A stretch of 64,000 bases of DNA, taken from the IMG/VR virus record IMGVR_UViG_3300002835_000026; one strand, written 5' to 3'. The stretch is from a virus. Below are positions 30,812 through 60,245 of the stretch, in pieces. The notes beneath the pieces are model-generated. The model did no database searches. It was not told where the DNA came from and saw nothing but the letters and a program-made list of their open reading frames with translations. The first letter of the stretch is position 1. Every line of letters starts with the position of its first letter. The position numbers were made by a program, and so were the translations under genes.

Positions 30812-32149
30812 TTAATTTGTATTTCTATTACTTATAATTTTTTCAATTGCATTTTTTCTTCCTCCAAATCCCTTAACACCTTGACCACTTAATATATCTC
30901 TTAATTCATCATCTGTTATATTACGATCATTAATTTGCTTTTGGTATTTCATTAACAACATGTTTTCAGATCTATTATCTGCCTCTTTACCTAACTCTTC
31001 AGGTGATCGCTTTAATGGTGTTACATCTGGGTTTGAAGAAGGTCTTGATAATATATCTCGGTCATGAATACCTTCTTTAATAGTTTTAGCTTTAGGTAAA
31101 TCACCATATCCGCTTGACTTATATTTACCTTTAGGTGCAATTGTTAATTTTTCAGTTTTAAATCCTACTCCTTTAGTTCCAAACATAGCATTTTTAGCAT
31201 AATAGTTTATGTCTTTAACCATGTTTTTAAGTACAATTTGTTTTAACTCATCAACTGTTTTAGTTTTGTTTTTAGGATCTTTCATTTCAGCATAGTAGCC
31301 ATTTAAGAAAGATGTACCATAAACATTATCAATATTTTTCTTATCTTCAGTATTATATTGATCAGCTAAATCTTTTTTAACTTGTTTAGATGGTTTTTTA
31401 AACTCATCATAATCACCATATAGTTTTCTATTTGGAACACCAATGACTTCTGATAATGTTTCTTCTTTAACTGGTCTTAACAACATTGGTTTAGTTACAA
31501 ATAACTCTCTACCATCTTCTGTCTTGCCTTTAATTTGTTTAATTTTGCCATCTACTTTATCTACTAAAGTAATTTCTACTTTATCATCACCAATCATAGC
31601 TTTATCACCAACTTTAACTTTAGAGCCAAATGATAAATCACTATGTGAAGTACCTAATACATCACCTTCATTTGTATTTAAAAGAGGTTTTATATCTTGT
31701 GTAAATATTTCAGTTTCAGTGAATTTCTTTCCATCAGCCATTATAATCATATCAAGATCTTCTTTTTTAAGTTCTCCTGATTTAAGAGCATTAAATAAAT
31801 CAATAGCTCTAGTGATGTTTTTATCATTTAATAATTTAGCACCTCCATTACGCTTTATCATACCTACAGCCTGCCCAAAGGGACCATCAGAAGCTGAAGT
31901 CATATCTACTGCCTCATTACTTGTATTTTCTCTAAAAATTTCTAACCAAGATGATGATGGTTTGTGACTAATTACACCACCAATACCTTCACTTAAAATA
32001 CTTTTTGATTTAAGTACACTTATAGTTGTATTATAATCAGAATATTGATTAATATAATTTGGAAATAAAATTCTTGCTTGTTTTAAGAAATGATCTTTGT
32101 TTCCTTTTCCTTCTTTAATAAGGATGTATTGTTCTTGTAATGTTTTCAT
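30812..32149 (-). CDS. Hypothetical head-module protein (445 aa), candidate internal protein
   Basis: Lies between portal and protease; begins MKTLQEQY; contains multiple L/I-x-E sites. Confidence 0.65.
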   Translation of the reverse strand: MKTLQEQYILIKEGKGNKDHFLKQARILFPNYINQYSDYNTTISVLKSKSILSEGIGGVISHKPSSSWLEIFRENTSNEAVDMTSASDGPFGQAVGMIKRNGGAKLLNDKNITRAIDLFNALKSGELKKEDLDMIIMADGKKFTETEIFTQDIKPLLNTNEGDVLGTSHSDLSFGSKVKVGDKAMIGDDKVEITLVDKVDGKIKQIKGKTEDGRELFVTKPMLLRPVKEETLSEVIGVPNRKLYGDYDEFKKPSKQVKKDLADQYNTEDKKNIDNVYGTSFLNGYYAEMKDPKNKTKTVDELKQIVLKNMVKDINYYAKNAMFGTKGVGFKTEKLTIAPKGKYKSSGYGDLPKAKTIKEGIHDRDILSRPSSNPDVTPLKRSPEELGKEADNRSENMLLMKYQKQINDRNITDDELRDILSGQGVKGFGGRKNAIEKIISNRNTN

Positions 32150-32162
32150 TTATAATGAGTTA

Positions 32163-32387
32163 TTAATTGTAAAATAATACTGCTCCTGATGATAAAGAAG
32201 CACTAGTTACATAAATAGGAACAGTGAATCCAGCGGGTACAACCCAAGGAGTTGTTAATGGAGATCCATTAAAATCTTTTATACCAGTGAATGTAGCTGA
32301 TCCTGATACTACTGTAAAGCCAGCGTATGAACCAGTGATTGATGTTGTAGTTACTATTCCGGTTGTATTAACAGGTATATTTGCCAT
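32163..32387 (-). CDS. Small Ser/Thr/Gly-rich structural protein (74 aa), possible decoration protein
   Basis: Beta-rich composition with TGS/SGS/SAS motifs, located in the head module. Confidence 0.55.
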   Translation of the reverse strand: MANIPVNTTGIVTTTSITGSYAGFTVVSGSATFTGIKDFNGSPLTTPWVVPAGFTVPIYVTSASLSSGAVLFYN

Positions 32388-32388
32388 A

Positions 32389-33225
32389 TTAGTCTTTAAA
32401 TAAGTTTATTAAATCGTTTAAATAATCGTTTGCTAAATCAGTACCATATAACACATTAAAACTAGGTTTATCTTTATAATAATTTAATGTTTTTTCTTTT
32501 GCGTTTTGTAATAATGGTAATAATTCGTTTAATTTTTGTTCTAATGTATCAAATCCTTCTAATCTAGATTTGATAAATATTTTTAATTCTGGTGTATCTA
32601 TGTTTAAAGAATCAATATAAGCATCTACATCTAATTGTGCTTCGTTTACATTCTCTTTCCACATTTGTTTAACTTCGATTCCTTTCGCCTGTTGATTCAG
32701 TTTTTTTTGATTAACAGGTTTGTAACCTAGTTTATAGTAATAGTTATTTGTTGTGCCTTTAGAATTAGTATTTTTTTTATAAGCTGCATCTGTACCTGCT
32801 TTTGTAGCTGTTTGTGGTCCTTCACCTGGACTAAATGCCCCTGCTGATGCTCCACCTCCTGTACCTGACTCTTCTTCTAAATCAATATTTAAATTGTTAA
32901 ATTTTTCTTGGTTATAATTATCTAAATATGGTTTTAAATCTTGTTTCCAAACTGCGGTTTGTGAAAAAGCTATATTATCTGCTTGTCCATGCTCTCCTTG
33001 TGTAGCTTTATCTAAGTCTTGGATAGTAATTTTACCAGTCTCCATAGCTTTTTTAAATGTTCTAAATTCATTAGATGGGCTATAGATTTCTAGTTTATTT
33101 TTTAATAATTCTTTACCACCAAAAAGCCAAATCCACTGAAGAGCTGTATCAAATTGTCCGTCAATACCTTTATGAATACTAACTTCTTTTAATGTTTGTT
33201 TAATGATACTTTTTAACTTATCCAT
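32389..33225 (-). CDS. Hypothetical head-module protein (278 aa)
   Basis: Leader MDKLKSIIKQTLKE; internal LEEESGTGGG. Confidence 0.65.
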   Translation of the reverse strand: MDKLKSIIKQTLKEVSIHKGIDGQFDTALQWIWLFGGKELLKNKLEIYSPSNEFRTFKKAMETGKITIQDLDKATQGEHGQADNIAFSQTAVWKQDLKPYLDNYNQEKFNNLNIDLEEESGTGGGASAGAFSPGEGPQTATKAGTDAAYKKNTNSKGTTNNYYYKLGYKPVNQKKLNQQAKGIEVKQMWKENVNEAQLDVDAYIDSLNIDTPELKIFIKSRLEGFDTLEQKLNELLPLLQNAKEKTLNYYKDKPSFNVLYGTDLANDYLNDLINLFKD

Positions 33226-34072: not shown

Positions 34073-34088
34073 TCCTAAAGTGTTTTAT

Positions 34089-34097
34089 TATAAATAT
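34089..34097 (-). promoter_or_regulatory. Putative late promoter motif ATATTTATA
   Basis: Upstream of the gene starting at 34072. Confidence 0.55.
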
Positions 34098-34107
34098 ATA
34101 AGGATTA

Positions 34108-35985
34108 TTATTCTCTAATTTGGGATTCATCTAATAGCGAATCTCCTGGTTTTTCTTGACTAAGACATAATTTTTTGTCAACTTGTTCAAACAAACGTTT
34201 ATTTCTTGCGAAAGCTGACTTAGCATTTTCTAAAGCAAACGGTTTGGTTGTTGATTTACCATATCCTGGTTGGTCATCTGATTTCATATCTTTAACACCT
34301 AATCTATCACGACCTAACGCGCTATCTTGTGTGTTAATATTAGATACTTTTTCTTTTGGACGACCTAATTGTGTATCATTATTATATCCTGGTGGTAATT
34401 CACCTTCTGGTCTGCCGTTTTTACTATATAAACTGGCTAAATCATGTGGTGTACCATAAGATTTACCTGTTTCTACTGGATCATTACCTTCTTCTTTAAT
34501 TTGTGCGATTCTAAATTCACGTTTTGCATCTTCAATCATCATATCTCTATATTCATCATATGAATCTTCAGAGAATCTGAATACATTGTCATAAACCCAA
34601 TCAGTAGGCATTAATTTAGTTTCAATGATGTTTTTAGCTAAATCAACTTTTTCCTTCATTAACATAATACGTTCTTGATCATATATAATAGACGGTGTGG
34701 TTAACGATAACTCGAAGTTAGTTAATTCATCATTAGTATAACCTTGAACATATAAATGTACTAATGCGATTTTATATAATTCAGACAATGTAATACGTTG
34801 AATACGATCAATTGTACGAGCAAAACGAATATCTTCCGCTGCTAATGTTGCTTTACCTTGTAAATCTTTATCATAACCTAAAAATGCTTTAGGTACCTTT
34901 AATGCTGCAAATAATTTATCTCTTAAATATGCAACGTCTTGAATACCATCGTAATCTAAACCTTTAGTATTTTCAATACGTGTTGCTTGGTCATTACCTC
35001 TTACTGGAATATAAAAATCTTCTAGTAAGTTTTGCATGTTATATTTTACGTTATATTCACCTGTCTTTTGATCCATTAATGGAGTACGTTTCATTGAACT
35101 AATAGTTTTCTGCATAAATGCTTCAACTTCATTAGGCGGGATAGAACCAACATTAATAAAGAAAGTACGTTTTTCTGGTGAACGAACTACACGATGGATT
35201 AACATTGCATCTTCCATTAACGCGTATTGTTTATATAAACGACGAGCTGGTTCTAGATAAGATCTACCATATGGTAAATAATTAACATCTGTAATTAATC
35301 TAAAGTGAGCAACCTCATAGTTTTCAAAGAAAATACCTGGTTCGTTTTGACGGCCTAAATTAGGTGTATTGTAATAACCATCACCTGATAAAAATCCTTC
35401 AGGTTTAAATTGGAAACGAACAGACGCTGGTTTGTCTTTATCATAATTTTCTTGTCTTTCAATATGATACGCTGTGTATGGAATAACATTATATACACCA
35501 AATTTTTCAGCAATTTCTAATCTTAAGAAAAAATCACCATATTTACACATTTGACGAATCCAAGACCATAAATTAAATTCGATATTTAATACATCATAAA
35601 ATAAGTTATATAAAATTCTTTGAATGTTTTCATCTGATGAACGAATAGATAATACTTCACCCATATCATCTTTTAATGTAGACTCATCAGCTACAATATC
35701 AAGTGCAGAACCAACAATTGCATCCTGATCCATGATATCATAGTCTGAATATAATTGGGTACGTAAGTATTGATAATTTAAATTTAATTGAGCTCCATAA
35801 AGTGAAGATGCATTAGTTGAATAGATTCTATTATATCTATCCATTAATGAGTTAGTAGCGATATCACCTGTTTGTTGTATGGTGTTAACGTCCATTACTT
35901 TTAATTGATCACCACCCTGATTTCTCATCACTACATCAGTAGAGAACAGTCGTTGTAATCGTGAAAATAAGCCTTTGTCTGCCAT
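34108..35985 (-). CDS. Portal protein (T4 gp20-like)
   Basis: YGRSYLEPARR, LMEDAMLIHRVVRSPEKRTFFINVG, EDFYIPVRG, YLRDKLFAALKVPK, EDIRFARTIDRIQ. Confidence 0.95.
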   Translation of the reverse strand: MADKGLFSRLQRLFSTDVVMRNQGGDQLKVMDVNTIQQTGDIATNSLMDRYNRIYSTNASSLYGAQLNLNYQYLRTQLYSDYDIMDQDAIVGSALDIVADESTLKDDMGEVLSIRSSDENIQRILYNLFYDVLNIEFNLWSWIRQMCKYGDFFLRLEIAEKFGVYNVIPYTAYHIERQENYDKDKPASVRFQFKPEGFLSGDGYYNTPNLGRQNEPGIFFENYEVAHFRLITDVNYLPYGRSYLEPARRLYKQYALMEDAMLIHRVVRSPEKRTFFINVGSIPPNEVEAFMQKTISSMKRTPLMDQKTGEYNVKYNMQNLLEDFYIPVRGNDQATRIENTKGLDYDGIQDVAYLRDKLFAALKVPKAFLGYDKDLQGKATLAAEDIRFARTIDRIQRITLSELYKIALVHLYVQGYTNDELTNFELSLTTPSIIYDQERIMLMKEKVDLAKNIIETKLMPTDWVYDNVFRFSEDSYDEYRDMMIEDAKREFRIAQIKEEGNDPVETGKSYGTPHDLASLYSKNGRPEGELPPGYNNDTQLGRPKEKVSNINTQDSALGRDRLGVKDMKSDDQPGYGKSTTKPFALENAKSAFARNKRLFEQVDKKLCLSQEKPGDSLLDESQIRE

Positions 35986-36004
35986 TTTATTATATGTTAT
36001 TAAT

Positions 36005-36013
36005 TATAAATAT
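36005..36013 (-). promoter_or_regulatory. Putative late promoter motif ATATTTATA
   Basis: Upstream of the portal ATG at 35985. Confidence 0.55.
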
Positions 36014-37590
36014 TATCGTATTAACCAACTAATGTCTTCATTTCCGCCCATACCATTTTCTATACTATATGGGTTAGGAACACTAGAACCATACGCTCCT
36101 GTAAATCCTGTTCTGTTAACAGACATATTACTTAATGTTGCTCTAGACATTTCTAGGTTTTGTGATTTAAATCTTAATGATGTATCTCTTAAATACATTC
36201 CAATTGCAAAACTCATAATTAAGTCATCATTGTATCCTGATTGTGCTTCAGGACGACCATTTTTCCAAATGAATACTTTCATTTCTTCTAGTAAACGTTT
36301 AGATTGAATAACAACACTTTTATCACCTATATACTCTCTAAATTTATTAACTATTAAAGGACGAGTTTTCAGTGATGTTGTAAAACCAGGTACTAATTTT
36401 GAATTATCCATATATTGGTCAAAATAAGCATCAGCATTATTACTAGCATCACTTTTAGGTGAATAATATAAATTCTTATATCCACGTTCTTGAATTGCAT
36501 CTAATGCTGACCAACCAATATTAGCATTTTCTACTACTAATAAAGCTTGGTTATATTCTGTAGCTAAACCAACTAAGAAAAATCCAAATTCTTTAGGTGG
36601 TAATTGACCTTTATATTCTGCTACCTGTGTATTAGATTCAACATGTATAACATGGGCTGCGGAAAAATCCTTGCCATCACCCCGTGCTACATCGGCTATA
36701 ACCATATATGATTGAGTATAGTCCGCCGGTTCCCATATCCATAAGTTACGGTCAACTCCGCGGCGTTCTAGCGGTTCTTTTATTGTGGTTTGAGATATAA
36801 ATTCAATCCATTCTGAATAGAATACTGTATCACCTGAAGTACTAAAATCACAATCACACTCTTGAGATGCTAATCTAGGATCACCTAATAATTCGTCTTG
36901 TTTTTTTCTCCATGCTTCATTTCTTTCAGGATGGACAAACCAAGGTAATTTAATAGGTAAGAAATCGTTTTGTTGGGCTTCAGCTTTAACCCATGTTTGA
37001 TGAAACCAATTACCTGTACCATAAGGAGTAGATAATACAATAGCACCACCACCCGTAGCTAAGGTTTGTTGAGCAGAAGCCCAAATTGTATCAATACCTT
37101 CAATAAATGCTGCCTCGTCAATTAATAGTAAAGATACAGCTTCAGATCTACCAGCATCACCAGCAGCTGATACTGCTTTAATTTGAGATCCGTTATTTAA
37201 TCGTAATGTAAGTTTATTATTTTCGTCTGCTGTTACTTTTAACCATGATGGTAAATTTTCATACATGAATTTTACCTTAGTTACCATGTTTTTAGCAGTT
37301 TCTTGCTTTGTAGCAATACAAAGTACGTTTTTATCTTTATGGAATAACATTAACCATAAAGAATAACCAGCTGATAGTGTTGAAATACCTAATTGTCTTG
37401 ATTTAAGTACTATACTGTATGGATTGTCTTTCCATAAATTTAATACTTTATCTTGAAATGGATATAAATTAAACATGATTCTTCCTCTTTGAGGATGTTG
37501 AATATAACAGTATTTTTTCATAAAGTGGCTTGGGTCACTCGCACACTTTACATATTCCTGTCTTATAACTTCACGTAAGTCTTGACTCAT
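36013..37590 (-). CDS. terL: Terminase large subunit (T4 gp17-like)
   Basis: LYPFQ, KSRQLGIST, LLIDEAAFI, STPYG.GNWF, QECDCDF, ADVARGDGKD, GYNDDLIMS. Confidence 0.97.
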   Translation of the reverse strand: MSQDLREVIRQEYVKCASDPSHFMKKYCYIQHPQRGRIMFNLYPFQDKVLNLWKDNPYSIVLKSRQLGISTLSAGYSLWLMLFHKDKNVLCIATKQETAKNMVTKVKFMYENLPSWLKVTADENNKLTLRLNNGSQIKAVSAAGDAGRSEAVSLLLIDEAAFIEGIDTIWASAQQTLATGGGAIVLSTPYGTGNWFHQTWVKAEAQQNDFLPIKLPWFVHPERNEAWRKKQDELLGDPRLASQECDCDFSTSGDTVFYSEWIEFISQTTIKEPLERRGVDRNLWIWEPADYTQSYMVIADVARGDGKDFSAAHVIHVESNTQVAEYKGQLPPKEFGFFLVGLATEYNQALLVVENANIGWSALDAIQERGYKNLYYSPKSDASNNADAYFDQYMDNSKLVPGFTTSLKTRPLIVNKFREYIGDKSVVIQSKRLLEEMKVFIWKNGRPEAQSGYNDDLIMSFAIGMYLRDTSLRFKSQNLEMSRATLSNMSVNRTGFTGAYGSSVPNPYSIENGMGGNEDISWLIR

Positions 37591-37976
37591 ATAACTAGTA
37601 AAATACCAACAAAAGCAATAGAACTAACTATGAACTTTAATTTGAATTTTTTTATTTGTTTTTGGTAATCAGTAATAATATTATCTTTATATTCTAATTG
37701 TTTTTGACGATCTATATCAATTTTTTTATATAATGAAATAGATGTATCTTGATTTTTTATAATAGAATCTTGATTGTTTGTTATTGTAACTAAAATATTA
37801 ACTGAATCTCTAACTACTGTGATTTGATTTTTAAGAAAATCACGTTCATTTTTTACAATTAAAGCATTTTTTAATGTTTTAGTGGGAACTGTAACTAAAT
37901 CCTCAGTTAAAAGCGTTTGTGAACTCACTAACAAGGGCATCATTAGACAAGTTATTAATACGATTATGTTCTTCAT
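37587..37976 (-). CDS. Signal-peptide coiled-coil protein with C-terminal TM helix; spanin-like candidate
   Basis: Hydrophobic N- and C-termini; overlaps the upstream TM/coiled-coil gene. Confidence 0.5.
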   Translation of the reverse strand: MKNIIVLITCLMMPLLVSSQTLLTEDLVTVPTKTLKNALIVKNERDFLKNQITVVRDSVNILVTITNNQDSIIKNQDTSISLYKKIDIDRQKQLEYKDNIITDYQKQIKKFKLKFIVSSIAFVGILLVI

Positions 37977-38259
37977 TGTATTTAGTTTTATATAAATCGG
38001 CTTTATATTTTAAACCCGATAATTTTGTTTTATCTTCTGTTACTTGTTTTTTATAAACAGCAGTAACTGAATCTAATTGGGCAATTTTAATTTTAGTAGA
38101 GTCAATATTTGCCTGTAATGAATCTATTTTATTATTTAATGTTTCGTTTTCTTTAGCCAAACGGAAATTAGGATTAATGTTAAGAATATTTACAATTAAT
38201 AACACTAATCCTATGTATCCTAAAAATTTAAGAATTTCTTTATACAACATCAAATTCAA
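37903..38259 (-). CDS. N-terminal TM plus coiled-coil protein; inner-membrane spanin-like candidate
   Basis: FLGYIGLVLLIVNIL followed by a long heptad repeat. Confidence 0.5.
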   Translation of the reverse strand: MNLMLYKEILKFLGYIGLVLLIVNILNINPNFRLAKENETLNNKIDSLQANIDSTKIKIAQLDSVTAVYKKQVTEDKTKLSGLKYKADLYKTKYNEEHNRINNLSNDALVSEFTNAFN

Positions 38260-39286
38260 ATTTATCCTTTAATGCTTCTAATTCTTTCTTTTGTGCTGTT
38301 TTTTCTTTTAATTTAGCAACAATATTTGCTTTTTCTTCGCCTTCAGCTTTTTTATAGTCGTTAGCTAATGTCTTCATTTCTTTTTCTACTTGAATTAAAC
38401 CTTTTAATACTTTATCTAATTTAGAAGTACGTTTAGTTAATTTATCAGCAGCTTTAGATGCTTGTTTGTCAATATCTGTTTCGTCTGGCGCTGAGTCTTC
38501 GTCTCCTGCTTTATAGTAGTCATCAGCTTCTTCTTCGCCTGTGTTAATATCTTTTTCCACTGCTTTAACTGCTTTTTCTATTTTTTCTTTAGATGGTTTA
38601 ACAACCGCTGCTTTTGGAGCGGCTCCACCCATTGATACTACACCTTTATCTTTTAACATACCCATTAATTCTCTGAATTTAGGATTGTTAATACTAGCTG
38701 TATCATTTAAACCAAATTCTTTAGCTACATCAGCAACTGACATTTCACCTTTTTCTAAAAGATATTCTAATGCTTTTTTAACATTACCTTTAGCTTTTTC
38801 AATTAATGAAGCTAATTCATCTTTCATTTCTTTATTTAAAATGTAAGATACTTTAGCACGAGCCATTTCATTTAAATCATTTTCATTATTAGATAATGAC
38901 ATCATTAAATCTTTTAAAAGATATTTAAAATCTTTATCTTGTAACCATCCTCTTGTATGAGCATAATAATCATAAACATCTTTAACTGAGCTTAATTTTT
39001 TAATATCCTTAATAAATTCATCTGGATTTGGAGATACTTCTGATTCAAACTCATATACTGTTTGTTGTAATGGAGTTAAATCATTAACTTCTTCAGCTAC
39101 GGCTATGGATTGTCCTGATTTTTTAGCTTGATCAATTGCTGCTTTAACAGTAGCAGTTGATGTTTTTTCTGATTTAGCTATTGTGTTAATATCATCAGTT
39201 GTTGTTTGTGGACCTACCATAGTAGTTTCACTTAATGCACCTATGATTTCTTCACGTATAAAAGATTTAAATTCTTTGATTTTCAT
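38240..39286 (-). CDS. Hypothetical protein (348 aa) with leader helix and possible HTH segment
   Basis: MKIKEFKSFIREEIIGALSE leader; 'ALEYLLEKGEMSVADVAKEFGL' resembles a winged HTH. Confidence 0.65.
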   Translation of the reverse strand: MKIKEFKSFIREEIIGALSETTMVGPQTTTDDINTIAKSEKTSTATVKAAIDQAKKSGQSIAVAEEVNDLTPLQQTVYEFESEVSPNPDEFIKDIKKLSSVKDVYDYYAHTRGWLQDKDFKYLLKDLMMSLSNNENDLNEMARAKVSYILNKEMKDELASLIEKAKGNVKKALEYLLEKGEMSVADVAKEFGLNDTASINNPKFRELMGMLKDKGVVSMGGAAPKAAVVKPSKEKIEKAVKAVEKDINTGEEEADDYYKAGDEDSAPDETDIDKQASKAADKLTKRTSKLDKVLKGLIQVEKEMKTLANDYKKAEGEEKANIVAKLKEKTAQKKELEALKDKFEFDVV

Positions 39287-43512: not shown

Positions 43513-44625
43513 TTATATTCCTGCTAGTTTTTGCATTCTAATGAATTCTAAAGATAAAGATTCATTTATTGCTGATGGTGATTTTATATTTTTTACAATA
43601 GAACTTATAGACTCCCAACTTTCTTTAATTAATTCAATTATAGCATATGCTAATAATATATAATGACCAAATTCCCATATCTTTATAAGATCATCTGCGT
43701 AAGGAATATAAGCAGAATATTCTTTTATTTTTTCTTCTACCCAACTCCAAGAAGAGTTAAAAACTCCTGAAATTTCCATAACAGCTGATATAAGTTCTGG
43801 AATAACATGAAATTCCATAGCTTTAGGGCCTCCTATTTTTTCAATAAATTTAGATATTAGTGTTAATATTTTAGAACTTGCCCAAGAACCAGTTATACTT
43901 ACAATACCCATTACTGGATTTAATGCTACTTTTATTATGTTTCCTAACCATGTTTTCCATTTACTATTTTCTTCTGCTTCTAATAAAACATTAGGATTAT
44001 TTAAATGTTCAGTAGTTTGTTTATTAAATATATTTTCTTGAATATTTTTTCCTGCTTCTTCTGCTTTTGTAATAACTGGTTCAACTACTTTGTCGCCAAT
44101 AGCATCAATCATAGTACTTGGGTCTTCTATTTTACCCTTAAAAAAACTATCTATTTTAAGTATGTGATTTATTTCAGCTATTAAATCATCTCTATCTGGG
44201 CCATTTAGTGCTTTTTTAAAGGCTTCTGTTATTTTATTTTTATTTTTTTCTATTAATCCTTTAATTGCTGTTTTTCCTTTTGAAATAAGATCAGTAAAAG
44301 CTTTTTTAATTTGAGCCCAAACTTTTACAACATAATTTTTAATTCCACCAAAAGTAGATTTAACTTTTTCCCATCCTGATCTAAACCAATCTGCTATACC
44401 TTCGTTTACTTGAGATTCAAATAATACTATATTTTTTCTATGAAAACTAGAATGTGATTCAAGATATAAAGATAATGCTTGTTTTTCACCACTAGTAAAA
44501 TAATCATTATTTGGTATAGATTTAATAAATTCTTCTTGAACTATTTTTATAGTCTTAGGTATTAAAGAAAATGAAATTTCCTTTTTTACTTCTTTAATTA
44601 ATTGTTTTAATTCTGATTGTTTCAC
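43513..44625 (-). CDS. Helical, partly hydrophobic hypothetical protein with leader helix and C-terminal RMQKLAGI motif
   Basis: MKQSELKQLIKE...INESLSLEFIRMQKLAGI*. Confidence 0.75.
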   Translation of the reverse strand: MKQSELKQLIKEVKKEISFSLIPKTIKIVQEEFIKSIPNNDYFTSGEKQALSLYLESHSSFHRKNIVLFESQVNEGIADWFRSGWEKVKSTFGGIKNYVVKVWAQIKKAFTDLISKGKTAIKGLIEKNKNKITEAFKKALNGPDRDDLIAEINHILKIDSFFKGKIEDPSTMIDAIGDKVVEPVITKAEEAGKNIQENIFNKQTTEHLNNPNVLLEAEENSKWKTWLGNIIKVALNPVMGIVSITGSWASSKILTLISKFIEKIGGPKAMEFHVIPELISAVMEISGVFNSSWSWVEEKIKEYSAYIPYADDLIKIWEFGHYILLAYAIIELIKESWESISSIVKNIKSPSAINESLSLEFIRMQKLAGI

Positions 44626-46356: not shown

Positions 46357-46796
46357 TTTTTTATTTTTTTAAATGGAGCATATCCTGAACCATATGGAGC
46401 TGATTTGCCAGATTGAGGATCTGGAGTTTCTGATATAGTCCAAGTTTTAGCATCATGTGCTTTTTCTTTCAATTTAAATGTAACAACACCACGAATTGAT
46501 TTAATATCTTTTTCTACTTTAGTTACAATATTAGTATTGTCATTTAATCCTTTAGGGAATGGTGATGGATCAATTTTAATATCTAAATAAGCATATTCAT
46601 ATTGTGATGATGGATTACCTGACTGATATTCTCTGTTATTAACAATAGTTACACCTAATACAGCTCTAACATCAGATAAAATGTATTTCATTTTAGCAAC
46701 TTTAGGGTTGATAACAATAACACCACCAATGGCTAATACCTTTTTTGATGAAGCATATTCTTCTTTAATTGCTTTTTTAATTTCTGATAGTTTCAT
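46353..46796 (-). CDS. Hypothetical protein; start likely at MKLSEIKKAIKEE (46796)
   Basis: Leader helix; ferredoxin-like 'ILSDVRAVLGVTIV...IKSIRGV' pattern. Confidence 0.65.
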   Translation of the reverse strand: MKLSEIKKAIKEEYASSKKVLAIGGVIVINPKVAKMKYILSDVRAVLGVTIVNNREYQSGNPSSQYEYAYLDIKIDPSPFPKGLNDNTNIVTKVEKDIKSIRGVVTFKLKEKAHDAKTWTISETPDPQSGKSAPYGSGYAPFKKIKK

Positions 46797-46807: not shown

Positions 46808-47455
46808 TTACCAAAAACCGGTAAAAGTAGTTTTAAATCCTAATAAGTTTGCGTAACGAGGTAATCTACATGACCAGTAACGTGCTGTTGTTTTATCTTT
46901 AGCTTGTGGACAATTCATTCTATCTGAAAATGCTTTACGTGCTTTAGGATTGTTTAGTTTTGCTCTTAAAGCTCCACCAGCCATACCAAATGATATTTTT
47001 TTAACTTTATCACCGTCTTTAACATAAACATAGAATTTTTTAGATCCACCACGTTTTGGTTTACCTAATGCTACTTCTTTACCTTGGTATTTAGCTTCAG
47101 TTATTATTTCCATTAATGGTAAATCTAAAGGAACAAATTCGCCTTCATATTTTGCCCACCTGCCAATATCAGTACGTTCAAATATTTTTTTATCTGTACC
47201 TTGTAATTCAATAATACCTTTAGACCATAACATTCTCGCTTCAGTCAATAATTTTTGATGAGCGAAACTGCCTGGGCGATATATATTCTCGGTAAGCTGT
47301 ATTTTACTGTCTATATGGTAACGCATCGCCTCAGATATCGCCATATTGTACTGCTTAGACTCTACGAGTAAAGGCGGTGTATCGCAGTGTTTGCATGAAT
47401 CGGTTACTTTGTAATTTTGCAAAGTTTCTGAGATAAGTTGTTTTAATTTATTCAT
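46808..47455 (-). CDS. Two-domain hypothetical protein with basic Cys-containing C-terminal domain
   Basis: ITE|AKYQGKEV..GKPKRGGSKKFYVYV..KISFG..ARKAFSDRMNC..RYWSC. Confidence 0.75.
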   Translation of the reverse strand: MNKLKQLISETLQNYKVTDSCKHCDTPPLLVESKQYNMAISEAMRYHIDSKIQLTENIYRPGSFAHQKLLTEARMLWSKGIIELQGTDKKIFERTDIGRWAKYEGEFVPLDLPLMEIITEAKYQGKEVALGKPKRGGSKKFYVYVKDGDKVKKISFGMAGGALRAKLNNPKARKAFSDRMNCPQAKDKTTARYWSCRLPRYANLLGFKTTFTGFW

Positions 47456-47458
47456 GAT

Positions 47459-47467
47459 TATAAATAT
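47459..47467 (-). promoter_or_regulatory. Putative late promoter motif ATATTTATA
   Basis: Immediately upstream of the ATG at 47455. Confidence 0.45.
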
Positions 47468-48492
47468 TAAATTGCTTTAGCAGTTGAAAATTGCTTTTTA
47501 GGATAAAATCCAAATCTTGCGTTTTTAATGTCTTGTTGACTCATATTATTTCTAAAAGTGACAGCCATATGTGGTATATATTCTCCAGTTAATTGTTGTG
47601 GATATATAAAATAAGCAGGACTAGTTATTTCAAAATACTCACCTTTATCAATTAATGTTATATTTCCAAAGCATATTAATTCTACTTTATCAATTCCAAA
47701 ATCTTCACCTAAACCGTAAGATGCTTTTAATTTTAAATCATCAGATTTAATATCTCTTTTATAACTGTCTTTATTTTTTAGTTCTCCACCTGATGTTTGC
47801 TTAACAGCATCTATAAAGCTTTTAACCTCATCATTATTACTTAATTTACTCATTCCTGATAATTGTTGAGATTGAATATCTTTATGTTGGATATATAGAT
47901 TTTCATCACCCTTAAATATAAAATCAGCTTGTTTATTACCTGGTATTTTTTCTACTGTAGTAATATTTTTGTATACTTTTTCTCCTACTTTTATATTAAT
48001 ACTTCCACCTTTTTCTTCAATAGCTTTATTTAAATTACTTAATTGATAATCTTCAATATCAGCACCAATAGCTTCCATACCTAATACTAAAATTATATCT
48101 TTTCCTTCAATAGGAAATTGGAATGCAAAATTTCTGCTACTAGGATTTTGGTTATTAGGATTACCTAATTTTGTTGGAGGAAGAATTTTAATATCTTTAG
48201 GATCTATATCAAATATATTAGATATAATATCTATAAATTCATTATTAGTAATATTCCCTATATTTTTTATACGTTTAGGTCTACTATGAGGACCTAATTT
48301 TCCTTTAGCTTCATCTGATGATAAAATAGTTCTTATAACTTGGGGTGTTGTTATTTTATCTTCTTTTAAACTAATACCTAAATTATTTAGTAATGATTCC
48401 ATTAATAAAATATCCTGTTCATTTTTCATGTCAGGATATCCTTTAGGAAATTTATAAGAATATTGTTTTAAAAACTTATCTAATGGATCCAT
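47467..48492 (-). CDS. Hypothetical protein with possible PD-(D/E)xK-like nuclease domain
   Basis: E....L...I...KQADFIF......IQHK..QQLSG resembles a restriction-endonuclease-fold catalytic motif. Confidence 0.55.
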   Translation of the reverse strand: MDPLDKFLKQYSYKFPKGYPDMKNEQDILLMESLLNNLGISLKEDKITTPQVIRTILSSDEAKGKLGPHSRPKRIKNIGNITNNEFIDIISNIFDIDPKDIKILPPTKLGNPNNQNPSSRNFAFQFPIEGKDIILVLGMEAIGADIEDYQLSNLNKAIEEKGGSINIKVGEKVYKNITTVEKIPGNKQADFIFKGDENLYIQHKDIQSQQLSGMSKLSNNDEVKSFIDAVKQTSGGELKNKDSYKRDIKSDDLKLKASYGLGEDFGIDKVELICFGNITLIDKGEYFEITSPAYFIYPQQLTGEYIPHMAVTFRNNMSQQDIKNARFGFYPKKQFSTAKAI

Positions 48493-48782
48493 TATTTTAC
48501 TTCAATTTGCTTCAAATTTGAAAATATTTGAGTTAATAAATTGTCGTCATTTGTTTTAATCATAGCAATCATAGTATCAGCCAATATTTTATTAGCCGCT
48601 ACATTCAAAGGTTTATTACTTTTTACTAAATTAATAGTAGTAGTAAATTTAGAAGGATCAAAACCTTCAACACCTAATTTTTTAAATAAATCTGTTTTGA
48701 TTTGACCTTGAAGTTTTGGTTCTTCAGTAGTGACTTCTAAAATTTGTTCTCTTATTAATTTTTTAAGTTCTGATTTTTTCAT
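48492..48782 (-). CDS. Hypothetical protein (96 aa)
   Basis: Leader MKKSELKKLIREQILE. Confidence 0.7.
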   Translation of the reverse strand: MKKSELKKLIREQILEVTTEEPKLQGQIKTDLFKKLGVEGFDPSKFTTTINLVKSNKPLNVAANKILADTMIAMIKTNDDNLLTQIFSNLKQIEVK

Positions 48783-50682: not shown

Positions 50683-52805
50683 TATCTTAAAATTCTTTTT
50701 AACATTGGAAACATATTTTCATTAATTTGATTTAATTTACCTTTAGCTTTTTTAGCTTCAGCCATATCAGGATAACTATCATCATAAACATCCATGCTGT
50801 CATCATAATTATCATCATTATCATCACCTGGATTATCTCCAGCATCATATTGATTTAAGAAGTCTTCCAATTTCATTCCTGGATTTTTCTGTATTGCTGT
50901 AAACATATCATTTATTATGTCTTCATTGTCCATATTTGATAAAATATCATATATAGCATCAGCACTATCATCATTTATAGCTTCATTAATTGGAGCTGTA
51001 TCTAAGATATGAGCTTTAGTAAAATAAGTAATTGTATTAGCAATTTGAGTAATTAATTTTTCATCACCTAATGCTTTTGCTTCAGCATATGCTGCTTGTA
51101 AGTTAGATTGAATACCTGATACTTCAGTTGTTTTACCAGCCATCATATCTGATTCAGGAGCATCAACTACTTCAGTATCGTCTACTGTTATGTCTTCAAC
51201 TTCTTTATCTTTTTTAGCTTCACTAAGACTGTCATTAGCTAACTTACCCATGTCCACTAAATTTTCTAATTCTTCACGTTCATCATTATTAAGATCTGTG
51301 CCATCTTTAAATTTAGCAACAGAAATATAAACGTCAGAATAATCATTATAAGATCCACCTTCTACTTCAATTGAATTAACATCAACTTCTTTTCCGTTTA
51401 ACATTACTTTGTTTGATTCTGCTTCTTTTAAGGTAGTACCATCAGAAATTCCTTTAATACTTGAATGTAACATTGCTAAGAAATATTTCATTTCTATTAT
51501 TCTATCTTCCATCTCTCTATCTGTGAATTGACCAAACATGACAAGATTTTTAACTATATCTAAATTCCTAAAAGCAGTTTCTATAGCAGTAACAGTTTTT
51601 CTTTCAACATCTTTAGGCTTAGTAAAGTCCCAATTATCTCCAATAGTAGATATAGCTTCATCTAAAGGATTTTGCAACATATCTTCTAATTTTTCTGCTT
51701 CTTCTTCTGATAAACCAGGATAAGAGTTCATTAATTCTTCAGCATCATATTCACGCATCTCATCTATAAAAAGATCACCTTTATTTTTAAAATATTTAAA
51801 TAAAAACTCAGCATCATAGTTGTTGTCTTCTAATTCTACTTCTTCTGCTTCAGCTAATGGATCATACATGTTATTTAAAGCACCTGGTTCATCAATATCT
51901 TCTGTAGAATCTTCATTTAATTCAGCTAAAATCATTTCTTTGATTTTTGATTTTAGTTTAGATTTAGTCATCTTTTCTTTTTCGATTTCTTCACCTTTTT
52001 TAACTCCAGCACCATATATATTTTCTTCACCTTTTTTACCTAAACGTTTAGCTGATTTAGCTCTATCATAATCAGTATCACCTTCGCTCATTTGTGTATT
52101 ATTTAATTTAGATAAATCGTTTGGATCAATAACAACTATTAAATTATCAATTTCTTGACCATATCCTATTGGACTATCACCTACTTCATTTTTTACTCCA
52201 ATAGAAGTTAAATAATTACTCATTTCATCTGCTAATTTATCTACTGTATTATTTAAAAATGATTTTTCTTTATCTTTTAAATAATCTCTATCACCAAAAT
52301 CCATAGAATTTTCTATTTCTTTAAAATTATCACTGTTAGTAACAACTAAATAAAGTTCATTATCTACTTTATAGTATTCAACATTTTTAAATTTACCAAA
52401 ACTTACTTTTGAATCTTTGTAAGCACCTTCACCTTCATTCATATCATCTAAGAAAAAGTCTTGACCTGGGAATAAAGTAGCTAAATCAGTTAATTTTAAA
52501 TTAACTTGATAAATAGATGGAGCCATTTCTTGGTATACTTCTGAATTATATTTGTCTGCTATAGTTTGGATCATAATGTCATCATTTGATGCAATCATGA
52601 CTTTGTTTTTTGCTGGGTATACCCAGATGTCTAGTGTTTCATCAGCATTTTTATTTGGAGGTACCATGTGGTAGATATTATCATCTCCCATGATTCTTTT
52701 CCATGATGAAAAATTTAACATGTTAGTATTAGATCCTTGATTTTCTTTAATAATACCCGCAAGTTTTTGCATGCGAGCTAATTGTTCATTTAATGTTGGT
52801 TTCAT
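50682..52805 (-). CDS. Acidic mosaic protein (707 aa) with N-terminal RMQKLAGI motif
   Basis: MKPTLNEQLARMQKLAGIIKEN; many [LIM]-x-E sites. Confidence 0.8.
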   Translation of the reverse strand: MKPTLNEQLARMQKLAGIIKENQGSNTNMLNFSSWKRIMGDDNIYHMVPPNKNADETLDIWVYPAKNKVMIASNDDIMIQTIADKYNSEVYQEMAPSIYQVNLKLTDLATLFPGQDFFLDDMNEGEGAYKDSKVSFGKFKNVEYYKVDNELYLVVTNSDNFKEIENSMDFGDRDYLKDKEKSFLNNTVDKLADEMSNYLTSIGVKNEVGDSPIGYGQEIDNLIVVIDPNDLSKLNNTQMSEGDTDYDRAKSAKRLGKKGEENIYGAGVKKGEEIEKEKMTKSKLKSKIKEMILAELNEDSTEDIDEPGALNNMYDPLAEAEEVELEDNNYDAEFLFKYFKNKGDLFIDEMREYDAEELMNSYPGLSEEEAEKLEDMLQNPLDEAISTIGDNWDFTKPKDVERKTVTAIETAFRNLDIVKNLVMFGQFTDREMEDRIIEMKYFLAMLHSSIKGISDGTTLKEAESNKVMLNGKEVDVNSIEVEGGSYNDYSDVYISVAKFKDGTDLNNDEREELENLVDMGKLANDSLSEAKKDKEVEDITVDDTEVVDAPESDMMAGKTTEVSGIQSNLQAAYAEAKALGDEKLITQIANTITYFTKAHILDTAPINEAINDDSADAIYDILSNMDNEDIINDMFTAIQKNPGMKLEDFLNQYDAGDNPGDDNDDNYDDSMDVYDDSYPDMAEAKKAKGKLNQINENMFPMLKRILR

Positions 52806-52833: not shown

Positions 52834-52836
52834 GTG

Positions 52837-53109
52837 TTATTTGTTAAACTTAACTTTTGCTTTTTCTGTATTGGATACAAATTGTTTACCTTTTTTACTA
52901 CCCTCAACTTTTTTGCGTGTTGTTGCGGCACGTTCTGCTTTAGTTAAGCGTTTTGCTTTAGCTAATGGTAAGCAACGTTGTGTTGCTTTACCTTTAGGCA
53001 TTGTACCACAGTCACCTGCGATGTTACCTTGAGTATCTATACGGACCCATTTTTCTTTTTTAAACCAGTCACGTAGTGATTCTTGTACTAGACGTTTTAA
53101 ATTGTCCAT
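52837..53109 (-). CDS. Small basic protein (DUF5872-like)
   Basis: SLRDWFKKEKWV...CG......RCLP.AKA..L...ER..T.RKK....GKQFV.N. Confidence 0.65.
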   Translation of the reverse strand: MDNLKRLVQESLRDWFKKEKWVRIDTQGNIAGDCGTMPKGKATQRCLPLAKAKRLTKAERAATTRKKVEGSKKGKQFVSNTEKAKVKFNK

Positions 53110-53459: not shown

Positions 53460-53460
53460 A

Positions 53461-54838: not shown

Positions 54839-54841
54839 TTA

Positions 54842-55483
54842 TTACTTTATTAGATTTTTTATTTGTTCTCTAATGACTTCTTGTAATTCTTTTTTAGTCA
54901 TTTTAACTTTCATATACTCAGCTTTAGGATCTTTAGGTAATTCTTTAATTTTACCTGCTTTAAACTGTTGCATAAAATATAATTTTGCTTCTTGATCTAA
55001 TTTATCTGCTGATTCATCAACTGCTTCTTTATCTACTATTGAATAATTAATTTTAGCATTTTTCATTACTACATCAATAATTTTTTTAGTTAAGTCTTTA
55101 GCTGGATTTCCTGATTTAGGGAAAACAATAGTATCATCTTTAACTTTATATTTTAATAATGTAGGTTTAGAAGTATGTGATTTAACAAAATCATCAATTG
55201 ATGTTTTAGTTTTAACAGGAAAAGGAAAACCTTGATCTCTTTCCATTTTCTTGCGTTTAGCAGGAATAACAGGACCAAAGTGATCTTCTATAGCTTTTTG
55301 TATAGATGATTTATTACGCATGTTAGAAACATACATTCCATAGTTATCTAATGTTTCTAAAGCCTTAACTGTATCTTCTACAGAAACACTATTAGGAGTA
55401 ACTACAATATCGTAATTTACTTGTTCACGATTTGAAGGTGTAGTTTCTGCTTCTTCTTCTCTTAATTTATATTTGTAAGCCAT
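54842..55483 (-). CDS. Hypothetical protein (213 aa)
   Basis: MAYKYKLREE leader; C-terminal MTKKELQEVIREQIKNLIK. Confidence 0.7.
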   Translation of the reverse strand: MAYKYKLREEEAETTPSNREQVNYDIVVTPNSVSVEDTVKALETLDNYGMYVSNMRNKSSIQKAIEDHFGPVIPAKRKKMERDQGFPFPVKTKTSIDDFVKSHTSKPTLLKYKVKDDTIVFPKSGNPAKDLTKKIIDVVMKNAKINYSIVDKEAVDESADKLDQEAKLYFMQQFKAGKIKELPKDPKAEYMKVKMTKKELQEVIREQIKNLIK

Positions 55484-55484
55484 A

Positions 55485-55880
55485 TTATTGCTTTAATTTT
55501 TGAATTAATTCTTTAGCTTTAGCTTTTTTCTCATCAATATCTTTTTTAGATGTTCTAAATTCATCCATTGATGATTTTAACTCATCAATTTGCATATCAC
55601 GTTCTTTTAAAACCATAGTAGCTGTTCTGCCAGCATCTGATTTGTTTTTATACATACCCATGATATTTTCATATGTTAAGCCATTTTTAATTTTTTCAGC
55701 TAATGAAAAAAGATCAGCTTCAAACATTATTTCTTCTTTTGTAGATTTAGTACCTGGTTTAGATACAACAAAGAATTTACCTACTTCATCAACTACATCA
55801 TAGTTTTTAGTGATAATTTCTTTTGTTTCCATTGTTTCTTCTTCTAAATTTTCTCTTAAAAGGTCAATTAATTTTTTCAT
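55485..55880 (-). CDS. Hypothetical protein (131 aa)
   Basis: Leader MKKLIDLLRENLEE. Confidence 0.7.
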   Translation of the reverse strand: MKKLIDLLRENLEEETMETKEIITKNYDVVDEVGKFFVVSKPGTKSTKEEIMFEADLFSLAEKIKNGLTYENIMGMYKNKSDAGRTATMVLKERDMQIDELKSSMDEFRTSKKDIDEKKAKAKELIQKLKQ

Positions 55881-55899
55881 ATTATCTTTTTATTTTGTT

Positions 55900-58800: not shown

Positions 58801-59283
58801 TTTAGGATCTTCTTCTAAACAAATTACTTTAGCTAAACCTAAAAGTAAACCTTGTACTTCAGCTGGATAATCTAAGAATGTATTTTTAAATGTTGATTCT
58901 TCTTCACTAGTAGAAATAATATTATCTATTTGAACAAATTCATCAGACATACCAACTATAGGGTATAATACAGTTACTAATTCACCACTACTAAGTGATT
59001 TTTTTCCTTTATATTTATTACTTTTAAAAGGTACAATAACTGAATCAGGGAGAGAAGCAAAATATTTAGCTAAATCTTGTTTAGCTAATTTTTTATCATT
59101 ACTATCTAAATGAACAATTAAATCAATGTCACCAAAGTCTTGTTTAGTTCCTGTATTATAAGAACCAGTTGCTTTAGCGTCCTTAAATCCAGGGAATTTA
59201 GATAATACTTTATTTATATAATCTTGAACAGTTTTTTCTACTGCTGCCCTAGATATTCTATTTCCACCTGCTGAACCTGACAT
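55900..59283 (-). CDS. Multidomain protein: Pol-beta nucleotidyltransferase + HIGH cytidylyltransferase-like + Cys/His knuckle + ART-like + two HExxH domains
   Basis: TGSY...DFGDIDL; LYGGGFKPPHKGH...SGTDAR; CDNC..C.H..C; LYHYTS...ISFTR...EQEER; LRHELIH; SHEMIHHEQ...EREAY. Confidence 0.8.
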   Translation of the reverse strand: MSGSAGGNRISRAAVEKTVQDYINKVLSKFPGFKDAKATGSYNTGTKQDFGDIDLIVHLDSNDKKLAKQDLAKYFASLPDSVIVPFKSNKYKGKKSLSSGELVTVLYPIVGMSDEFVQIDNIISTSEEESTFKNTFLDYPAEVQGLLLGLAKVICLEEDPKKIFTRLGITNVPELEANQEYEFNLSSAGLTLRIVTLDNFKELNRTEVWKSSNWSIVKKLFDNYNIDGDFKTLLQDLKSKLKNERSKNRIKGIFKSMVSIKSGEVDTPKGDNKQAALDAVSSLLENKLFKGLVRELILPLIEADSKKTVALYGGGFKPPHKGHFEVVEKALEQFPQIDEFIIYVGSGTRDGITQAESLLTWDIYKKYLPLKVKVEPAKSPITAIYEYIENHQDEDVIWVIGARDGKDDDFVDLASKTKGIGKYENVELAPIITQSDTSGTDARQALKKGQEAFLSFIPEKVKEKTEIFNTLSTVIQELVTATEVICDNCGWTWKLADGGKDLYICHNKLPDGSICGHDNNPDLNEGTCDYDTDVKTGKKLDTPGGLEEGKQVGPLYHYTSADGLKGILQSNKINTSEENYLGNELYYISFTRNKNFYKKGSNFGVKTDYRITLDGDKLSDKYKITPFAYRPGWNYEDNWEYNWLEDEPESVVRDFFNNTGDYDEQEERISFKGPEGGIDNIKNYILAVNKVEDLKEGIISLSDEEETKLRNLIPIFIQALKEKDFKVGLTNPIKYKMASGEEAEFVPYIYDDGDTRSAAKFLTQDNTNFKDNFIGINGNYWFPAFEGTLESIWKTLTGDNPKEALLSSLRHELIHAKDPAVNHKPLKTKYDPSKPELYYGTWEEFPSQTGEFLEAIKFNSYEYINNNKDNLKQAVLELNSYYQDILDFYSGKNKMFNKSTMDWLSKGEKGNDIQKFIRKIADWGGWFLGINTNPGWDSRSTLTNFHSNIEQIRKYNPEGYKEFQKDLYKTIQNTIDYINTKLPKDSPLLKAGGQGKLKEGKENNDYKKYIPELTKYMVNQGMNIKPLPVVKFINNDKANAENVFGKTAFYSPEEKSITLFTMNRHPKDVLRSFSHEMIHHEQNLDNRLNNIGTTNTNEDGDLPEIEREAYKKGNMMFRNWEDSIKNK

Positions 59284-60245
59284 TATGCTGCTTTATATTT
59301 ATTTAAATTAGAATCATCAGGTAAAAATTTACCTTTAAGACCTAAGCGACTTTGATTAGTAATCCAATATTCTTGAAGATCTAATGGAATATCAGCTCTA
59401 GTTGAGTCTAATATTCTTAAATATATATCTAATACTTGATTTAATTTATCTTTAGGTAGTTTTTTCTTTAAAACATCCATTAACTCAAAATAATCATTTA
59501 ATACATCTTGAGATAAATTAAGTTTAAATCCTTGGTTTAATACATCTAATGCTTCTTGAGGATTAGTCGCTACTATATCTCCTGTTTCTTTATCCTTAAC
59601 ACCAGTACCATGACTAAAAGTTTTATTTAATGCTTGGAACATAGCTACCATTAATTGGGTTCTATGTAAACCTTTTACATTATCTTTATAGGTATTTGAA
59701 TAGTAACTAAAATTTAGCCAATCTAAATTACCTACATTAATATCTATTTGTACTGATTTATCATTAAGTATTTCTCCTTTTTCATTGTATTGAGGAAAAT
59801 TACAAAATATTGAGCCATTACCTGCTGCTTTTAAATCAGTGTCTATATATTCTGATTTCTTTTCAAGATTAGTAGCTATTAATTCTAACATAGCTCTTAA
59901 TTTGCTTTGAGTTTCTGATGCTGAACGTGAACGTTTTCTAATTTTTTCATATAGAGTGTCAAATTCAGCTTTATCAATATTCCAATTAGATAATAATGGA
60001 TTACCATCTTTATCCATAAATTGGTCAACACTCATACCTAAATCAATATCACCAGATTCATCTTTTTTACCAACTGAACCTAAAGTATTAAAGTTAAATT
60101 TTACTTTTGGGTATACTTTATTTAATTCAGCAGTGAAATTTTTAAGAGTGGGTTGGATGTATTCTTTTTTGATACTAGAGGTGGTGCCAAATACGTTGCC
60201 ACCTTCTAAAGTTATTGATTTTAAAAGCTCAATTAAAGAAATCAT
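59283..60245 (-). CDS. Pol-beta-superfamily nucleotidyltransferase
   Basis: LEGGNVF...LGSVGKKDESGDIDL...VQIDI...VKGLHR. Confidence 0.75.
   Translation of the reverse strand: MISLIELLKSITLEGGNVFGTTSSIKKEYIQPTLKNFTAELNKVYPKVKFNFNTLGSVGKKDESGDIDLGMSVDQFMDKDGNPLLSNWNIDKAEFDTLYEKIRKRSRSASETQSKLRAMLELIATNLEKKSEYIDTDLKAAGNGSIFCNFPQYNEKGEILNDKSVQIDINVGNLDWLNFSYYSNTYKDNVKGLHRTQLMVAMFQALNKTFSHGTGVKDKETGDIVATNPQEALDVLNQGFKLNLSQDVLNDYFELMDVLKKKLPKDKLNQVLDIYLRILDSTRADIPLDLQEYWITNQSRLGLKGKFLPDDSNLNKYKAA

Follow-up and report, generated by a model that had tools for sequence, protein, structure and literature searches.

Glu-terminated leader peptides on unrelated genes of an uncultured aquatic T4-type phage: candidate capsid-targeting propeptides

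The IMG/VR virus record IMGVR_UViG_3300002835_000026 was analyzed over a stretch of 64,000 nucleotides (the window), with a focus on short N-terminal leader peptides that end in Glu and head a series of genes between positions 30812 and 60245. All real genes lie on the minus strand, as do all window features described below, and the phage segment is AT-rich, with a GC content of ∼0.29 outside the fibre gene. The initial annotation had proposed that about 15 proteins of this block carry two further families of amphipathic leaders (class II and class III). Each of the N-termini that it listed was found at its start, and the number holds if the 11 class II and class III genes are taken together with a 445-residue protein with a T4-like start, a possible further member starting at 48492 and three class I genes. 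For the gene called at 46814, the ATG at 46796 that had been assumed was the likelier start, as relatives begin there right after an upstream stop. The bodies of the tagged proteins all fell into different BLAST families.

Class III leaders were found on a 131-residue protein (55485-55880; leader of 10 residues, 55851-55880, identical in five relatives), a 105-residue protein (46039-46356) and a 176-residue protein (44887-45417), and a 14-residue variant (60204-60245), which has Leu-Glu right before Gly-Gly, heads a 320-residue protein (59283-60245). Class IIa leaders begin a 96-residue protein (48492-48782; 16 residues with two PHI-x-Glu sites, where PHI is a hydrophobic residue), a 147-residue protein (46353-46796, from the ATG at 46796), a 370-residue protein (43513-44625, GTG start) and a 348-residue protein (38240-39286), whose 20-residue leader has a double core and ends in Leu-Ser-Glu; among orthologues of the latter, conservation extended through residue 20 and was followed by divergence. 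Two leaders of 10 residues, assigned to class IIb but standing in the class III register, head a 90-residue protein (52837-53109, MDNLK type) and a 215-residue protein (46808-47455, MNKLK type). In the interval between portal and protease genes, the leader of a 278-residue protein (32389-33225) combines Gln10 with Leu-Lys-Glu at 12-14, and directly upstream of the protease gene the 445-residue protein (30812-32149) has a start resembling those of T4 ipII and ipIII, with Ile-Lys-Glu at residue 13. The possible further member, a 341-residue protein (47467-48492), has PHI at 4, 7 and 8 and Gln at 10. Residues 1-44 of this protein (including KFPKGYPDM) were 64-80% identical in many contigs (loci L002-L031), and for many of these the match spanned residues 1-44 alone, in ORFs of 322-402 residues. 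To judge from these matches, the first 44 residues may form another portable N-terminal module, longer than the leaders.

Comparison of the leaders revealed a single core behind all classes, PHI-x-x-PHI-PHI-x-Glu. Class III leaders and the MNKLK/MDNLK leaders have PHI at 4, 7 and 8 and Glu at 10, which is the T4 register. The class IIa leaders (MKKSELK type) show identical spacing shifted by two (6, 9, 10 and 12), with Glu at 12 and 20 and a second core at 14, 17, 18 and 20 (120 unique IMG/VR examples among the matches listed), and the class I peptide also has the common core at its end. Because this register and tandem-core pattern was observed, all classes could be regarded as variants of one core, and class II as heterogeneous. 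The two proposed families are therefore not independent; the class II leaders are real, but the class as defined combined a double-core type of 12-20 residues with 10-residue leaders in the class III register. IMG/VR was scanned with degenerate DNA patterns for class III and class IIa, and the figures from these scans refer to the matches listed and are lower bounds. Leaders started at Met1 and were 10, 12-16 or 20 residues long; an upstream in-frame stop lay no more than ∼25 codons away in 126 of the 132 class IIa matches listed, and the class III listing was similar.

In T4, the gp21 protease cleaves after L/I-X-E, the propeptides of internal proteins have 10-19 residues, and mutagenesis of the ipIII capsid targeting sequence (CTS) assigned residues 4 and 7 to targeting and residues 8 and 10 to processing (PMC9026906). 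In the T4 record, ipII and ipIII both begin with MKTYQEFIAE and gp24 begins with MAKINELLRE. The earlier remark that the 445-residue protein starts close to the T4 CTS thus refers to a peptide that the record contains. Only this protein (start at 32149) and the kinase of phage Melnitz had starts resembling MKTYQEFIAE; classes II and III showed no alignable similarity to it and share its pattern, not its sequence. On the other hand, the leader of the 131-residue protein lies very near the gp24 propeptide, which is removed by gp21, and is nearly superimposable on it (Met, Lys3, PHI4, an acidic residue at 6 and Leu-Leu-Arg-Glu at 7-10), although gp24 is a shell protein rather than cargo and no gp24 paralogue was seen in the window.

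We consider it likely, with a probability of roughly 70%, that the leaders are T4-style capsid-targeting propeptides, proteolytically removed, on proteins carried as head cargo. Tagged proteins would be made late in infection, and the N-terminal amphipathic helix with its PHI-x-x-PHI-PHI-x-Glu core would dock them into the scaffolding core of the assembling prohead. A gp21-type serine protease (encoded at 30200-30805) would then cleave after the Glu, leaving the mature protein free inside the head to enter the next host cell with the DNA. Single 10-residue cores (class III, MNKLK/MDNLK) and tandem cores (MKKSELK) would be functionally interchangeable, and the cargo would be a fast-turnover repertoire including enzyme-like and effector-like proteins. 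The sequences themselves show the motif and its position, the selection acting on it, its modular use, the genes that accompany it and its agreement with the T4 determinants, whereas docking, cleavage, packaging and ejection are inferred. The literature searched contained no virion proteome for this clade.

The head module of the window has the order terminase (36013-37590), portal (34108-35985), four small genes, prohead protease (30200-30805), scaffold (28375-29463) and major capsid protein (MCP, 26670-28346). The protease, which is the presumed processing enzyme, is of gp21 type (S77; phrog_207, E = 5e-56), shares 35% identity with T4 gp21 and retains the GEL(D/N)HP and GVSSRG motifs. The 278-residue tagged protein is encoded where T4 has its prohead core genes 67 and 68. 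The scaffold, with a probable start at Met11, bears a class I peptide at its C-terminus. The N-terminus of the MCP, which is of gp23 type, closes with Leu-Leu-Glu at residue 9, and its closest cultured relative was that of Flavobacterium phage immuto (55% identity), followed by Microcystis phage Mel-JY01, Rhodothermus phage RM378 and the T4 group. The head module also includes two small proteins with signal-peptide- or lipoprotein-like N-termini, one encoded between protease and scaffold (29605-30228) and the other overlapping the terminase start (37587-37976). In many relatives, the slot after the protease holds a class IIa-leader protein of ∼135 residues.

Tagged genes and the protease kept company in other genomes as well. 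PF03420 (Peptidase S77) was identified in 7/7 class III and 5/5 class IIa near-complete IMG/VR genomes, and in 34 of the 53 tagged records overall, many of which are fragments. Of 31 loci, 29 had in the head operon a conserved protein of ∼135 residues with a class IIa leader, whose gene adjoined the protease gene, preceded scaffold and MCP, or both. Control genomes were a related contig (G001, 89 kb), two complete genomes (G006 and G012) and T4. In G001, leaders were confined to a stretch adjoining the head module, and its replication, tail and baseplate genes had none, except for one class I gene. The comparison with replication and metabolic genes that had been proposed gave a similar result in the window, where no leader was found on the DnaG-type primase, the PD-(D/E)XK nuclease, the SegE-like endonuclease, the FAD-dependent oxidoreductase, the metallophosphoesterase, the IscA-like protein or the AAA_28 kinase. 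Since the untagged oxidoreductase, phosphoesterase, IscA-like protein and AAA_28 kinase lie among the tagged genes, behind a different upstream motif, the block is a mosaic; it contains many tagged genes, as had been proposed for a head-internal repertoire, but not the whole of it could be cargo. The wider proposal of capsid loading agrees with the protease, the T4 register, the presumed late motif described below, the modularity of the leaders and their absence from replication genes, but its extension to the entire block did not hold.

These data also bear on a different explanation, to which we assign a rather low probability, namely that the proteins are not head-internal and that the leaders belong to a different late assembly, of neck, tail, baseplate or a membrane-bound complex, where they would be protease-removed propeptides or would serve for docking, or that they are tags recognized by a phage factor such as a chaperone or modifying enzyme. 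Presumed late co-expression and the PHI-x-Glu ending would fit such an assembly equally well, and a general interaction motif would suit the internal and C-terminal copies that also exist. However, Pfam scans of the proteins tested gave neither a radical-SAM enzyme nor any other candidate maturase, whereas the S77 protease, the sole partner tested, was present in 12/12 near-complete tagged genomes. Moreover, the leader register equals the mapped T4 determinants, a class IIa leader heads a protein within the protease-scaffold-MCP operon, and tail and baseplate proteins lack leaders.

Upstream motifs provided a further view of the block. The 9-mer ATATTTATA occurred in 12 copies on the coding strand of the window versus 1 on the opposite strand, each of the 12 lying 12-74 nt upstream of a start. 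Five cargo-block genes have a copy, including the 320-residue protein gene (60259-60267, 22 nt upstream), the others being at 53724, 52825, 47459 and 44691; the distance is 12 nt for the 215-residue and 74 nt for the 370-residue protein gene. The remaining copies are at 36005 (portal) and 34089, and at 25709, 2997, 2229, 2184 and 947 (neck, fibre and sheath). A copy of this motif with one mismatch was found upstream of the 348-residue protein gene. In G001 the ratio was 21 versus 1, with a single replication-region copy at the contig edge (527). Judged by strand and position, ATATTTATA, the reverse complement of the T4 late-promoter core TATAAATA, is likely to act as a late-promoter element in this clade. 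An exact 10-mer promoter search was discarded, as it gave 4 hits versus 2.65 by chance and only the 9-mer with its strand and position bias was informative. A second motif, (A/T)GTTTGG(C/T), was located exactly 39 nt upstream of three untagged units (motifs at 62027, 42553 and 40181; starts at 61988, 42514 and 40142), comprising primase and nuclease; FAD oxidoreductase, phosphoesterase and IscA; and an 83-residue protein. The primase and nuclease genes behind this motif lie just past 60245. This second motif probably represents an early or middle promoter of host type (resembling the Bacteroidota -33 TTTG element) that lies within the late region. A SegE-like GIY-YIG homing endonuclease is encoded at 62026-62484 (PF19835, E = 8e-28), flanked by the primase gene and a gene of the tail region.

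We then considered whether the peptide or its DNA is conserved. Across bodies and contigs, the leaders showed many synonymous differences with an unchanged peptide, including all leucine codons, both serine families (TCN-to-AGY switches) and alternation of AAA/AAG and GAA/GAG. Because synonymous sites vary while the peptide stays constant, the leader tags are, by the evidence of their codons, under protein-level selection. In class III, entropy was at most 1.4 bits up to Glu10 and 3.3-3.8 bits from residue 11, and position 6, which was free in the search pattern, was Asp in 89 of 120 among the matches listed. ORFs of at least 50 residues were begun by 128 of the 135 class III and 128 of the 132 class IIa matches listed. 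The class III matches, pooled with a first set of loci, comprised 189 proteins in at least 79 unrelated body families, and the class IIa matches comprised 117 proteins in at least 71. Furthermore, 30 related IMG/VR loci, located via an unrelated neighbouring gene, had the same leaders on 30 body families.

Leaders of different classes could also be found on one body. Depending on the contig, an orthologous body of ∼110 residues was headed by a class IIa or a class III leader, and orthologous bodies of the class IIa 147-residue protein of the window (46353-46796) bear a class III leader elsewhere. Two other apparent swaps (MDNLK or MNKLK family versus class III family) proved to be partial or multi-domain links, not orthologous bodies, and were rejected, which leaves the ∼110-residue family as the one clean case. 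A P-loop kinase body bears several leader variants, among them short leaders of T4-like type in two cultured phages, HTVC008M and Melnitz. The 320-residue protein had 1688 homologues, and in the 120 listed the leader varied within its hydrophobic register and Glu stood directly before GGNVF; in a 13-sequence alignment this Glu14 was invariant, whereas Glu10 was present in most homologues and replaced by Ser or Thr in the window's own subclade. In the AF2 model of this protein, the leader is predicted as a detached helix (residues 2-12, pLDDT ∼33), with residues 1-24 below 50, followed by a linker and a body from residue ∼27. The tag is not limited to genomes of 140-190 kb, since a jumbo-sized IMG/VR genome (G036, behind locus L225; 292,723 bp, 91% complete) encodes an S77 protease and two proteins with class IIa leaders.

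At one genomic slot, different contigs had the same upstream gene end and the same leader followed by different bodies; thus, cassette exchange occurs at the leader. Together with fusion and fission events at leader boundaries, this observation would suit the idea that 30-60 nt are conserved at gene starts chiefly to act as recombination linkers for cassette swaps and that the peptide has no targeting role. We regard this idea as improbable, since the peptide is kept despite many synonymous changes (two-step serine codon switches among them), amino-acid changes retain the hydrophobic register and the Glu, and one body can be headed by leaders of classes that share no DNA similarity. The leader may well double as a recombination site, since a peptide function leaves room for such a secondary role.

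The leaders were far more frequent than chance would predict. When residues 2-12 of all 61 window proteins were compared with BLOSUM62 and no preset motif, 22 pairs scored at least 20, only one of which was a true paralogue pair, and random internal windows, shuffled N-termini and fixed offsets gave 0.5-2 pairs. Using an a-priori T4-type motif ([LIVFMY]xx[LIVFM][LIVFM]xE, with Glu required at residues 9-14 and the expectation derived from internal motif density), we identified 8 window proteins versus 0.6 expected (p = 1e-7), and 10 versus 1.0, 16 versus 3.1 and 14 versus 3.1 in G001, G006 and G012, respectively. In the window and in each of these three relatives, Glu peaked sharply at positions 10 and 12. 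T4 as positive control yielded ten motif matches, including ipII, ipIII, gp24 and Alt. The T4 hypothetical protein gp61.1 (54 residues; NC_000866 18966-19130, L305), whose gene adjoins the primase gene, starts much like the ipII/ipIII targeting sequence, with Met-Lys-Thr, an aromatic residue at 4, Phe-Ile at 7-8 and Glu at 10. A compositional or translational artefact of A-rich, unstructured 5′ coding ends in an AT-rich genome without Shine-Dalgarno sites, for which a GC content of ∼29% and the Met-Lys start of many unrelated proteins might speak, is very improbable, since shuffled N-termini of the same composition gave 1.2 pairs versus the 22 observed, untagged enzymes of the same genome share the codon usage, Glu is fixed at positions 10 and 12, and leaders were confined to T4-type genomes among those tested. 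Overall, the shuffling, untagged-enzyme, synonymous-variation and swap controls led us to reject both a compositional artefact and a pure DNA linker.

Copies of the class IIa-like peptide away from N-termini, three of which had been reported, were all present: in the scaffold at residues 166-179 (28927-28968), in a 707-residue class I protein from residue 279 (51930-51971) and at the C-terminus of a 213-residue protein from residue 195 (54860-54901). The second was kept in orthologues at a varying distance from the N-terminus, and the third was kept at the C-terminus of orthologues of 213-419 residues. In one locus (L005, 9263-9973), the 96-residue class IIa gene of the window was fused behind an extra domain of ∼143 residues with the leader whole, Met included, which is a natural fusion or fission event at the leader boundary. 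By their position, these copies may serve for docking or be cleaved internally; in T4, Alt likewise undergoes C-terminal processing (PMC9026906).

With respect to the proposal that the tags mimic the scaffold and the MCP, Glu-ending starts were indeed found on both, as the scaffold N-terminus from Met11 ends in Leu-Leu-Lys-Glu at residue 10 and MCP starts in the clade have PHI-x-Glu by residue 9. The internal scaffold copy aligned weakly with the start of the class IIa protein in the prohead operon of relatives (E ∼2e-4, composition correction off). An HMM of that protein found no full-length homologue in the window, only leaders, and matched only the first 38 residues of the 96-residue protein. 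Mimicry of scaffold and MCP starts by cargo leaders, as such, is only suggested by these similarities.

In PHROGs and Pfam searches, almost no cargo body matched a named family. The 90-residue protein body matched phrog_23735, a PHROG of unassigned function, phrog_7595 matched the C-terminal part of the 215-residue protein, and the 370-residue body had weak matches to tape-measure-type PHROGs. The 320-residue body has a GS...DxD motif, and a Foldseek search with its AF2 model weakly matched DNA polymerase beta (E ∼2e-3, TM ∼0.35), so this body might tentatively be considered nucleotidyltransferase-like. An untagged neighbour of 1127 residues combines NTP_transf_2, CTP_transf_like and Tox-ART-HYD1 domains, and relatives encode its CTP_transf_like (NMNAT-like) module as a separate leader-tagged gene, which clusters with two more leader-tagged genes for a Zeta-toxin/AAA-type kinase and an NT5C-like nucleotidase. 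This trio was kept from this clade to Kyanoviridae phages (G001 71418-74418, L035; HTVC008M 106562-111718, L178), and in G001 it lies behind a late motif with all three genes leader-tagged. Its domain content suggests that it is possibly an injected nucleotide or NAD salvage set.

Exposure of cargo to the protease might leave a trace in the bodies. In 210 non-identical proteins of classes III and IIa, each 80 residues or longer, [LI]xE occurred beyond residue 25 at 0.91 of the composition expectation (bootstrap 0.79-1.04, ignoring the kinship of the proteins), compared with 1.22 (1.19-1.25) for the other ORFs of the same loci. No depletion in cargo bodies was observed for [LI]xD, [LI]xK or [LI]E. 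The depletion of [LI]xE would be a hint, independent of the leaders themselves, of protease exposure.

Several observations weigh against capsid targeting of the tagged proteins. First, the depletion in cargo bodies extended to [LI]xxE and is thus not strictly tied to the cleavage site. Second, position 10 is Gln, Ser or Thr in some members (starts at 33225, 60245 and 48492), which depend on a later Glu; in such leaders PHI-x-Glu follows 3-4 residues further on. Third, the motif is low in information, and a few of the matches in G006 and G012 are far from the head module. Fourth, internal and C-terminal copies that keep the Met are not explained by a pure N-terminal signal. Fifth, some tagged bodies are enzymes equally able to act in the cytoplasm, and the NT5C of Melnitz has no leader. 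Finally, the weight of the S77 finding in 12/12 genomes depends on how common S77 proteases are among large IMG/VR genomes.

The nearest known system is the T4 CTS, described on IPI, IPII, IPIII and Alt (Mullaney and Black 1996, J Mol Biol 261:372, as cited in PMC13326640; reviews PMC9026906, PMC3012670). Both are N-terminal peptides of 10-19 residues with PHI at 4, 7 and 8 and Glu10 that close in a gp21 L/I-x-E site, both occur on unrelated, quickly exchanged proteins, and in both cases the genome also has a gp21-type protease and a gp23-type capsid protein. In addition, an ART domain is present in the same block here, in the untagged 1127-residue protein, and Alt is the packaged ART of T4. 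However, no alignment extends beyond the core, and ∼12-15 genes per genome are tagged here versus 4 in T4. Several leader classes per genome, a tandem double core and internal and C-terminal copies are further differences, kinase, nucleotidyltransferase and nucleotidase folds occur among the cargo here, the host lies outside the enterobacteria, and the present system is known from sequence alone.

Iyer, Burroughs, Anand, de Souza and Aravind reportedly described in 2017 the polyvalent proteins of phages and conjugative elements, which are said to be multi-domain delivery proteins. The 1127-residue protein with its NTP_transf_2, CTP_transf_like and Tox-ART-HYD1 domains resembles them, including the CTP_transf_like module that is separate and tagged in relatives, but their concept concerns multi-domain proteins and not a short portable loading tag. 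The giant phages phiKZ, 201phi2-1 and SPN3US also have large sets of head-internal proteins cleaved after Glu by a diverged gp21 homologue, but their propeptides are longer and defined by mass-spectrometry cleavage sites, with no shared short N-terminal tag (PMC9026906, PMC5694885, PMC7411985). In the literature searched, which was incomplete, we found no published description of such leaders outside T-even and giant phages or for this clade, and priority is unproven. Most likely, the tagging is a variation on T4 capsid targeting and not a new principle.

T4 loads a handful of head proteins by means of a 10-residue tag, including proven anti-restriction and host-takeover factors. If the same logic holds in abundant uncultured aquatic T4-type phages, the tag would be a sequence-only marker of proteins that enter the cell with the DNA, with at least a dozen genes tagged in each genome, several tag classes that can replace one another and a great many families of cargo. 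We would go further only with considerable doubt and suggest that the PHI-x-x-PHI-PHI-x-Glu tag might be a general, sequence-readable address label of environmental T4-type phages, serving hundreds of cargo families, with leader classes that dock different prohead-core partners. In that case, injected head cargo could be listed directly from metagenomes; it would include kinase/NMNAT-like/nucleotidase sets as well as ART and nucleotidyltransferase effectors able to pre-empt host defences, and the coexisting classes (single core, tandem core and the scaffold-C-terminus-like class I) would set copy number or ejection order. Proteins delivered with the DNA are a place to seek first-strike anti-defence and takeover functions. 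The leaders would also supply a natural collection of portable loading tags for phages that infect hosts other than E. coli, and would make it testable how a prohead core sorts many different cargoes.

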